Source: a virus (taxonomy: Duplodnaviria; Heunggongvirae; Uroviricota; Caudoviricetes). Taken from it: DNA of 4,785 nucleotides. Numbering within the stretch: position 1 is the first letter of the stretch; each line of letters opens with the position of its first letter. Position numbers: made by a program. Where the stretch lies: IMG/VR virus record IMGVR_UViG_2703718802_000004, positions 1 through 4,785 of that record. One strand, written 5' to 3'. Of this stretch, positions 1 through 3,000 are shown piece after piece.

Positions 1-3000
1 CCTGGTGGGGAAATCTGCGTTTGTGGAAGCCAGTGGCCGGGCGAGCAATGATGCGGAAGGGTATCTGGACTTTTTCAGAGGAGAAATCGGGAAGACACAT
101 CTGGCACAGGGGATGTGGGAGCTGATTGATAACAGCCAGCTTGACGATGAGATGGCGGAGATGAAGACCACCATCACAGAAACCCGCAATGAAATCACGC
201 AGACGGTCAGTAAAACCCTGGAAGACCAGAGCGCGACCATACAGCAGATACAGCGGGTGCAGACAGACACAAATAACGACCTGGCTGCGCTGTATATGCT
301 GAAGGTGCAGAAAACGAAAAACGGCATTCCGTATGTTGCCGGTATTGGTGCGGGGATTGAGGATGCTGATGGCCAGACGCTGAGCAATATTCTGCTGCAG
401 GCGGACCGTATCGCGATGATTAACCCGGAGAACGGCAACACCACGCCGCTGTTTGTGGCGCAGGGGAATCAGCTGTTCATGAACGACGTGTTCCTGAAGC
501 GACTGTTTGCAGTGAGCATCACCTCGTCCGGCAATCCCCCGACGTTCTCCCTGACGCCGGAGGGCAGGCTGACGGCCCGCAATGCGGACATCAGCGGACA
601 TATCAGTGCGAACTCGGGCACGCTGAATAATGTCGTGATAGCGGAGAACTGTACGATAAATGGCACGCTGAAAGCGGAGAACATTATTGGTGATCTTGTG
701 AAATGTGCAGGGGTGGCTTTTCCGGTGGATGGTAGTTACCTTGCGAACGGTACACGAACGCTGACGGTGTATGACGATCACAGCTTTGACCGGCAGATTA
801 TAATCCCGCCGATAATCTATGTCGGGTCAAAACAGGAATCCCGTACCAGTAATGACATCTGGACAGAGTGCTTCCTGCATGTTGATCAGAATGGACGCCG
901 GATTTATTCAGGCAGGTCAGTGACAGAGCCGGGAATTTTCAGCGGGATCATCGATATGCCAGCTGGCGGTGGTCATATCACCCTGAGTTTTACCGTGAGC
1001 TCACGGCGTCAGAATAACAGTTGGGGCAGTTCACGAATCAGTAACCTTCAGGCGATAGTGGTGAAGAAAAACAGCGCGGGGATCAGCATCCGCTGAACAT
1101 CGCGCCCCGGGATTGCCGGAAGGAGACAAAAACCGTACAGTATGCGCGGGTGCCTTTGGCTGATGGCCGGAGGGAACACCTGAAGGCCGGATGTGAAAAG
1201 GCCCCGGACAAAACATTCATGTTTAACCCGAGGCCTGACGTTCTTCCTTCAGCAAGAAGAAGGTTAGCGCCTCTCCGTAAAAGGAGCAAGCGTTATGTCG
1301 CAAAAACCGTTAAAAACCACCGTGATTTGTATCACGGTAGTGCTCATTATCTGGATCACCCACAGTTCACTGTGCGAGTTCCGGTTCCGGATAGCGGGCG
1401 CGGAGATTGCGGCGTTCTTACAGTGTAAGCGGTAAGAAACCGTGGCGGGGGAGTGTACCTTCCCCGCCGACCGGTTGCTGAGGGTGATCAGCCGGATGGC
1501 ACCGTTTTAACACCAACAAACCACAAATATTACCGCAGGCCGGGAAACCGGTCCTGCGGTTTTTTTATGGGGGAAATCCATGACAGTCAGAATATCGGGT
1601 GTGCTGAAGGATGGTACGGGAAAAGCGGTACCGGGATGCACGATAGAGCTGAAAGCGCGCCGTACAACGGAGACGGTGATTGTCACCACGGTGGCGTATG
1701 GTCAGCCGGGGGAAACCGGCAGTTACAGTATGGATGTTGAGCCGGGTCTGTACCGGGTGACGCTGAACACGGAAGGGTACGCGCCGTCATATGTGGGTGA
1801 CATTCTGGTGAAGGCGGATTCTGCACCGGGAACGCTGAATAAATTTCTGATGGACCTGGAAGACGCACAGTATTACCCGAAAGCCCTTGCAGAGCTGGAA
1901 GCGGTGGCAGCGGAAATCCTGAAACGTGCGGAAGCGTCAGCGGCGAGTGCAGAGGAAGCGAAGAAACGGGCAGAGAATGCGCGGGGACCGAAGGGGGATA
2001 AGGGAGACACCGGGCCACAGGGTATTCCCGGGCCAAAAGGCGATACCGGTGAGCGTGGGCCAAAGGGTGAGCGTGGTGAGAGGGGGCCGCAGGGGCTTCA
2101 GGGTGTGAAAGGTGAACGGGGAGAGAAGGGCGAAAAAGGCGAGCCGGGCGGACCGGATGCGACGACGGCACAGAAGGGAATTGTGCAGTTAAGCAGCGCA
2201 ACGGACAGTGATGATGAAACGAAGGCAGCCACCCCGAAAGCGGTGAAAGCGGCAATGGACAAAGCGGACGGATGCCTGGAGAAAGCGAAAAACGGTGACG
2301 ATATCCCGGATAAGGTGAAGTTTCTGAACACCGTGGGAGCAGCCAGAGTATACGGGCGGGACATTCATACGGGGGCCGGTGAATGGACTACGAGCGAGTT
2401 TGTCGCCTGGCTGAAAGAAAAAGGGGCATTTGACCAGCCTTACTGGATGATGAAGGCATCACTGCATGCGGGATTCAATAAGGTCATCACGGATGTCGGA
2501 CCGGGAAAACTTAATCTGGGGGGCTGTGTCATTGAGGTGATGGGGAAGTATGAGGCAGCCATAGTCCGGGTCACCATTGGCGAATACGGTGCAACGGGGT
2601 TTATTAATGGCACGGTCTGTACCTGTACGGTTTACGGCGACACACAGTATTTCCACTGGCGGGTGGATTACAGCACAAAGAACAAACCGGATACGGTCAG
2701 CCAGCGGGATGCCAGCACGACGCAGAAAGGTGTGGTGCAGTTAAGCAGTGATACTGGCAGTAATGACGAAACAAAGGCAGCCACGCCGAAGGCCGTGAAG
2801 GCGGCAATGGATGTGGCAAATGAAGCGAAAACAAAGGCAGAAGAGGCTGCAGCAGGAGGTGGTGTTCCCGGTCCGAAAGGAGAGAAAGGTGACCCCGGAG
2901 CACAGGGTCCGAAAGGTGAAACGGGAGCAACAGGCCCCGCTGGTCCGCGAGGAGCGCAGGGACCGAAAGGGGAGAAAGGCGACCCCGGTCCCAGAGGTGA

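Follow-up and report, generated by a model that had tools for sequence, protein, structure and literature searches.

A putative Sok-type antisense RNA encoded opposite the hok leader of an Escherichia coli lambdoid prophage

It is proposed that the minus strand of the hok leader in a lambdoid prophage of E. coli encodes a Sok-type antitoxin RNA, a reading that we consider very probable. The locus lies in a stretch of 4,785 nt (positions 1 to 4,785 of the IMG/VR virus record IMGVR_UViG_2703718802_000004; hereafter the window), and its toxin gene hok (1295-1435, plus strand) encodes a 46-aa protein that matches Pfam PF01848 HOK_GEF with 43.5 bits (cut-off 22), carries the RefSeq name 'Hok/Gef family protein' (WP_000078853.1) and is preceded by the Shine-Dalgarno (SD) sequence AAGGAG (1281-1286, plus strand). 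Judged by its sequence, the locus is a hok/sok-type type I toxin-antitoxin (TA) cassette carried as a moron in the prophage. The predicted antisense RNA spans 58-64 nt (1190-1253, minus strand), with a 5ˊ end at about G1253 and a 3ˊ end between 1196 and 1190, and would consist of a single-stranded 5ˊ recognition tail of ~17 nt (GCUGAAGGAAGAACGUC, 1237-1253, minus strand) that is unpaired in the folds, a terminator-type stem-loop (1199-1236, minus strand) and a U-rich 3ˊ tail read from the sequence (UUUUCACAUC, 1190-1199, minus strand). A preliminary description of this DNA had proposed a Sok-like antisense RNA of about 60 nt opposite the toxin leader (1196-1289); at the level of sequence all of its predictions hold apart from the detail of a mok-like frame, which is discussed below. 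The element is an unannotated member of the well-known hok/sok system and no new kind of element, and the basic picture of hok/sok biology is unchanged by it. What it adds is an antitoxin RNA gene beside a toxin gene that RefSeq annotates alone, and the features that go beyond routine are only two, the likely absence of mok and a hypervariable recognition module.

The hairpin at the heart of the predicted RNA is oriented for the minus strand. In the fold of the minus-strand RNA from 1240 to 1196, a 2x2 internal loop separates an outer stem of 10 bp (1236-1227 with 1199-1208) from an inner stem of 5 bp, which is capped by a UGAA loop. The free energy is -21.4 kcal/mol (z = -4.65), a value that none of 200 shuffles equalled, and the stem is followed downstream by UUUU (1199 to 1196) and then CACAUC. 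The plus-strand version of the hairpin reaches -16.0 kcal/mol (z = -4.1). The outer stem holds two G·U wobbles, 1231·1204 and 1227·1208, each of which would be an A·C or C·A mismatch in a plus-strand transcript. Folding of both strands thus bears out the minus-strand orientation claimed in the preliminary description, as it does the hairpin (1236-1199) with its U-tract; the single stem mismatch reported there has given way to two G·U wobbles and an internal loop.

Relatives of the locus provide the strongest evidence, a test of the strand on which selection acts. A search of viral contigs with an alignment of Hok homologues gave 79 loci with Hok identities from 100% to 63%, and the same alignment confirmed no relatives in the genome contigs searched. 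The usable set comprises 78 loci, that is 77 fetched loci and the window, with 33 distinct leader variants among the relatives. Pair counts and model building used an alignment of the hairpin only (A2); a MAFFT alignment of the full predicted Sok RNA (A3), in which two subgroups stood out of register, was left out of both. The minus strand is the more stable in all 19 distinct hairpin variants (means of -23.0 kcal/mol, against -13.6 kcal/mol for the plus strand), and each variant has one to five G·U pairs on the minus strand and none on the plus strand. In A2, 94.2% of the stem cells are paired on the minus strand and 69.7% on the plus strand, the former value being reached by none of the 500 shuffles and by no slid register, and three pairs of the hairpin have changed on both sides in a compensatory manner. 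These patterns indicate, as far as sequence comparison can, that selection acts on a minus-strand transcript. They also bear on the alternative that no antisense RNA is made and that the hairpin and the conserved hexamers are parts of the folded plus-strand hok leader. The plus strand does form the hairpin, inside a very stable full-length fold, as this alternative requires; yet 59 cells of A2 are G·U on the minus strand and A·C on the plus strand while none shows the reverse pattern, so that each wobble of the family weakens the plus-strand hairpin, and in some variants the plus-strand hairpin has fallen to about -12 kcal/mol with the minus-strand one still near -26 kcal/mol. The hairpin moreover has homologues, on the sok strand, in the annotated genes sokC and sokB (see below), and we consider an origin in the mRNA fold alone very unlikely.

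A candidate promoter for the antisense RNA is formed by a -35 box TTGCTC (1284-1289, minus strand), which overlaps the hok SD by 3 nt, and a -10 box TAACCT (1261-1266, minus strand), the two being separated by a spacer of 17 nt (1289 to 1284 and 1266 to 1261). Both boxes had been named in the preliminary description, together with the overlap of the -35 box with the toxin ribosome-binding site, and their architecture, TTGnnn (TTT in two variants), a spacer of 17-18 nt and TA(A/T)CCT, recurs in 78 of the 78 loci. The -10 box is invariant in the relatives save for one variant, TATCCT, which is the sequence found in plasmid R1. The minimal motif TTG-N19-21-TAnnnT is rare, occurring no more than three times in the whole window, both strands taken together, and just 1.7% of shuffles place it correctly relative to the hairpin. 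In 28 of 30 variants a G stands eighth after the -10 box. This nucleotide, the predicted 5ˊ end G1253, coincides, through the Rfam alignments, with the annotated 5ˊ end of sokC of E. coli K-12. The 3ˊ end is placed between 1196 and 1190 because of the U-tract and of homology to the 3ˊ end of sokC (model position 44, which corresponds to window position 1190). The sokC tail UUUUCUCUAU is comparable to the 3ˊ tail of the window, UUUUCACAUC, and the relatives have UUCGUCUUUC or UUUCCACAU at this place. The flanks of the hairpin, 1185-1199 and 1236-1250, are mutually complementary on both strands. The window itself has GGAUGU/ACGUUC, and a corresponding complementarity, GGAAAGACG/CGUUCUUCC, is seen in those variants that have the other tail type. 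By analogy with ucb in R1, pairing of the flanks on the plus strand would mask the arm that Sok recognises for as long as the mRNA is unprocessed, and on the minus strand it would pair the 5ˊ tail of the antisense RNA with its 3ˊ tail.

The putative target of the 5ˊ tail is a sokT-like hairpin in the hok leader (1231-1275, plus strand; -23.4 kcal/mol), which presents the loop CUUCAGCAA at 1247-1255. Its inner stem shows compensatory changes among the variants, its loop is 8-9 nt long, and a YUNR motif, from which a U-turn geometry is predicted, is present in 18 of 19 variants. The predicted first nucleotide of Sok pairs with position 6-7 of the target loop, and the 5ˊ tail of the antisense RNA is complementary to the loop and to the 5ˊ arm of the target hairpin. 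This agrees with the recognition described for R1, where a loop of the hok mRNA in its refolded form is bound by the 5ˊ tail of Sok (PMC1635323). One side of the target stem is formed by AGGUUA, the complement of the -10 box; this side is constant among the relatives and its pairing partner alone varies. Such one-sided constancy is consistent with a second constraint on AGGUUA, namely the promoter, and speaks further against an explanation by the folded hok leader alone.

An arrangement that deserves separate mention is a longer Sok RNA that starts upstream of 1262 and carries an extra 5ˊ stem-loop (1262-1240), like the second of the two structural subgroups among the bulk Sok RNA predictions of T1TAdb, the one with an additional 5ˊ stem-loop (PMC8594479). 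The minus strand of 1190-1262 can indeed fold a second hairpin, CUUCUUCUUGCUGAAGGAAGAAC. The sole upstream TAnnnT is nevertheless TAACCT at 1266-1261 itself, which overlaps the 5ˊ arm of that hairpin and would place a start 7-8 nt downstream in its loop; no other TTG-N-TAnnnT lies nearby on the minus strand, and the target hairpin of the plus strand accounts for the inner stem. This form was rejected for lack of an upstream -10 box and seems to us very improbable; the shorter Sok RNA predicted for the window fits the R1-like subgroup of T1TAdb.

The region that would determine specificity is also the most variable part of the locus. The 24-27 nt between the -10 box and the hairpin, which make up both the 5ˊ tail of Sok and the 5ˊ arm of its target, occur in 19 versions in 77 loci. 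Within a group whose hok coding sequences (CDS) are 97% identical, identity is 72% in the recognition segment, 75% in the 3ˊ tail and 97% in the promoter. The tail types (UUUUCACAUC or UUCGUCUUUC) and the recognition segments (1237-1260) are not always combined in the same way, a pattern that suggests exchange of the specificity region as a module. Between R1 and the K-12 loci, different Sok RNAs were reported to show no cross-talk (PMC9841398). The idea that co-resident copies always differ in their recognition segment was rejected, identical segments being found in three of six multi-copy genomes.

Comparison with known hok/sok systems places the predicted RNA among its relatives. Sok of plasmid R1 is a 64-nt RNA with a stem-loop and an 11-nt single-stranded 5ˊ tail that recognises a loop (PMC1635323); it is made from a strong promoter, has a half-life of ~30 s, and its duplex with the target is cut by RNase III (PMC1635323, PMC9841398). 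On the minus strand of plasmid R100 we find TTGCGC, 17 nt, TATCCT, 7 nt, ACUAGACAUAG and the hairpin GCCUCGUGG...CUACGGGGC, and 64 nt counted from the A reached after the 7 nt end in a CUUCUUU tail, in agreement with the published 64-nt Sok (PMC1635323). The window reads TTGCTC, 17 nt, TAACCT, 7 nt, G1253, a tail of ~17 nt and the hairpin GGCCUCGGG...CCGGGGCC. Common to the window and R1/R100 are a cis-encoded antisense RNA of about 64 nt inside the hok leader and upstream of the hok open reading frame (ORF), the TTGnnn-17-TAnCCT pattern, whose -10 box falls within the target hairpin's 3ˊ arm and whose -35 box is at the hok SD, a single-stranded 5ˊ tail followed by a GCCUCG...CGGGGC stem with the same U·G wobble, a weak U-rich 3ˊ tail, and pairing of the 5ˊ and 3ˊ ends of the hok mRNA. 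The differences are that the 5ˊ tail has ~17 nt in the window against 11 nt in R1, that the carrier is a prophage and not a plasmid, that a mok frame starting in the Sok-covered region is required in R1 (PMC9841398) and is not conserved in the family of the window, and that the -35 box overlaps the SD in the window and precedes it in R1. The last of these follows from a leader that is ~9 nt shorter between the target hairpin and the SD than in R1/R100.

The chromosomal loci of K-12 are linked to the window by covariance models as well. A model built from A2 (model R1) scores 59 bits on the minus strand of the window and 10.6 bits on the plus strand, and it matches L003 565-608 (+) inside sokC (553-611, +) with 23.1 bits (E 4e-5) and L004 633-673 (+) inside sokB (620-676, +) with 17 bits (E 2e-3), in both cases on the sok strand. 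The Rfam model RF01794 'sok antitoxin (CssrC)', of 157 nt, matches the window at 1148-1306 on the plus strand (50.3 bits, E 2e-9), a stretch that includes the complement of the predicted RNA, and the E value points to homology with hok leaders. On the K-12 hokC and hokB loci the same model scores 118 and 110 bits, respectively, on the hok/mok-sense strand (L003 502-654 (-) and L004 567-718 (-), opposite to the annotated sokC and sokB), and its matches end at the hok AUG. What RF01794 represents is therefore the hok leader and not the antisense RNA, and its matches report the wrong strand for Sok. The annotated sokC corresponds to model positions 44-106, that is to window positions 1190 and 1253. 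In sum of features, sokC and sokB (b4413, b4429) share with the window a hairpin on the same strand, equivalent 5ˊ and 3ˊ ends and a similar UUUUC... tail; they differ in that the starts of mokC and mokB fall in the 5ˊ arm of the target hairpin, a region covered by Sok in which the window has no start codon, and the Hok proteins fall into different clusters (C-terminus ...AEIAAFLQCKR). A further relation is hokW/sokW of the Stx2 prophage Sp5 of E. coli O157 Sakai, an experimentally validated type I TA system in which sokW is transcribed from its own promoter (PMC8621323). It is likened here by description: both are hok/sok cassettes of lambdoid prophages, HokW having 51 aa and the Hok of the window, a locus known from its sequence alone, 46 aa. 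The enrichment of hok genes in prophages has been noted in a survey that included no analysis of Sok or Mok (bioRxiv 10.1101/2025.08.07.668861).

Several observations weigh against a Sok-type RNA at this site. The antisense promoter is weak, with 6 of 12 matches to the consensus, and the U-tract has just 4 U. A generic sigma-70 scan of 1000-1700 did not call the antisense promoter, a point that also favours the no-antisense alternative, and a generic terminator scan of the same region did not call the antisense terminator and reported only that of the hok mRNA. The thresholds of these scans are too strict for Sok-type signals, and for this reason we do not count their negative outcomes as contrary evidence. 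The complements of the -10 and -35 boxes also lie within functional elements of the plus strand, AGGUUA in the target-hairpin stem and the -35 complement, which adjoins the SD, in the spacer between SD and ATG, so part of the conservation of the promoter could be owed to the hok mRNA. The Sok hairpin of R100/R1 escaped detection by model R1; the hairpin sequence of R100 is too diverged for so small a model, and homology to R1 therefore rests on the positional comparison and on the Rfam leader model. The RF01794 score of 50.3 bits is below the gathering score of 59, and annotation pipelines miss the RNA because this model falls below its threshold here and describes the hok-sense strand. The hok locus has no annotated RNA gene, and RefSeq lists the toxin gene alone. 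Finally, the mok ORF, through which Sok of R1 acts, is not conserved here, and the proposed step by which Sok would block Hok synthesis is correspondingly tentative.

The mok-like frame begins at ATG 1219, within the loop of the antisense hairpin, and is open in the window over 1219-1428 (plus strand), with no Pfam match. The preliminary description had pointed to this ATG as covered by the antisense RNA and had likened the RNA to Sok in size and logic. The ATG is indeed covered and its frame open to 1428, and size and architecture agree with Sok; the frame itself reaches the hok SD in only about 9 of 78 loci, and the R1-style logic, in which Sok blocks mok, is thus not supported for this locus. 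In most loci with a Hok 96-100% identical, stop codons within the variable segment close the mok-like frame, or one inserted nucleotide ahead of the hok ATG shifts it. No conserved mok start was found at the position equivalent to R1 and hokC (about 1237-1245) or in any frame, and only a minority of variants have a frame, initiated by ATG, GTG or TTG, that runs from the Sok-covered region to the hok SD. The reading frame that opens at ATG 1219 is probably fortuitous, and this seems to be a hok subfamily without a conserved leader ORF. In R1, translation of mok up to the hok SD is needed for Hok synthesis (PMC9841398).

That requirement, together with the absent or broken mok frame in most relatives, would fit a decaying relic like several chromosomal hok loci of K-12, in which neither Hok nor the antisense RNA still functions, and frameshifted or start-less hok genes in some relatives point the same way. 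The damaged genes comprise L041 (1117-1251), with a frameshift that ends in a mok-frame peptide, L037 (~1192), which has lost its hok start codon, and L035 (1201), which has a GTG start; the antisense promoter and hairpin are still intact in all three. Against decay, the hok ORF is intact and ~97% identical within the close group, selection seems to have preserved promoter, hairpin, target loop and tac/fbi pairing alike, in part through compensatory changes, and a related locus type is found in 1675 of 5426 complete E. coli genomes. A relic therefore seems unlikely to us.

We propose that a functional Sok-type RNA would act as follows. A constitutive sigma-70 promoter, TTGCTC-17-TAACCT on the minus strand, would direct transcription from about G1253, and termination after the 1236-1199 hairpin and its U-rich tail would yield an RNA of 58-64 nt with a single-stranded 5ˊ tail of ~17 nt. 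This tail, which shows perfect complementarity to the loop with its YUNR motif and to the 5ˊ arm of the leader hairpin 1231-1275, would nucleate pairing at the target loop, from which a full duplex over 1190-1253 could spread, stop translation of the processed hok mRNA and mark that mRNA for cleavage by RNase III. Once the unstable antisense RNA is no longer made, the stable, slowly 3ˊ-processed hok mRNA would be translated and Hok would damage the inner membrane. We infer transcription, the exact RNA ends, the instability of the RNA, the involvement of RNase III and the block of translation, and among these the way in which translation is blocked is the least certain step, because the subfamily has no conserved mok leader ORF. 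The block may operate through RNase III decay of the duplex or through an effect on the hairpin of anti-SD and SD (CUCC 1273-1276 with GGAG 1283-1286). As a tentative extension, to which we lend only limited credence, the prophage hok subfamily may work without a mok peptide, its Sok-type RNA controlling hok directly, either through decay that depends on RNase III or through a refolding of the leader round the anti-SD/SD hairpin, with the 5ˊ tail and target hairpin serving as an exchangeable hypervariable specificity module that insulates near-identical co-resident cassettes. A locus that is both mok-less and hypervariable could serve to study the action of Sok without a leader peptide and the avoidance of cross-talk among co-resident cassettes.

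The remaining elements of the hok mRNA are those of a hok-type transcript. A candidate hok promoter, TTGCCG-17-TACAGT, can be read from the sequence at 1113-1141 (plus strand), its -10 box being TACAAT or TACAGT in the relatives. The hok mRNA probably starts at about 1148, the position to which position 1 of the Rfam hok-leader model aligns. A tac-like element at the 5ˊ end of the mRNA (1148-1169, plus strand) pairs with an fbi-like 3ˊ fold-back element that is complementary to the mRNA 5ˊ end (1482-1504, plus strand); the duplex, of about -36 kcal/mol, is maintained in the relatives by compensatory changes, and the same two segments are paired in the minimum free energy (MFE) fold of the mRNA 1148-1567 (-192.2 kcal/mol, z = -8.6). 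An intrinsic terminator at 1533-1566 (plus strand), supported by the terminator scan and the fold, closes the transcript. It ends 13 nt before the tail-fibre ATG at 1580, and with so strong a terminator directly before that ATG, transcription of the late operon must read through it. In the GenBank record of phage 1720a-02, a 'hypothetical protein' (L002 4346-4525) is annotated over the hok 3ˊ untranslated region (UTR), the fbi element and the terminator; it is probably a spurious ORF.

The window is derived from a lambdoid prophage of E. coli. Over 1097-1579 it matches prophage regions in the chromosomes of several E. coli strains with 100% identity, and phage 1720a-02 with 96%. The hok cassette lies between the C-terminus of the tail-tip protein J (gpJ, 5-1096) and a tail-fibre gene with collagen-like repeats (1580-3307, plus strand), and in the identical prophage regions PGAP annotates Hok/Gef between gpJ and the tail fibre. 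The site of the cassette (1097-1579) is the place of lom in phage lambda. Among 5426 complete E. coli genomes, 142 carry close copies of the locus; the sister locus type mentioned above, with matches in 1675, is matched over at least 80% of the query in 1155. Farther downstream follow a DUF4376 tail-fibre-assembly-like gene (3349-4020) and a DinI-like ORF (4292-4540, minus strand). In the tail-fibre gene 1580-3307 there are two blocks of collagen-like Gly-X-Y sequence, and close to each of them stands one copy of the phage tail-fibre repeat; Pfam reports Collagen and Phage_fiber_2 in two stretches each, so that the gene looks like the product of an internal duplication. A LexA-box-like palindrome of the form CTGT-N8-ACAG (CTGTAGTTATGTACAG, 4556-4571) stands just upstream of the minus-strand DinI-like ORF, and TTCGTCGA is present in three copies within 4667-4752.

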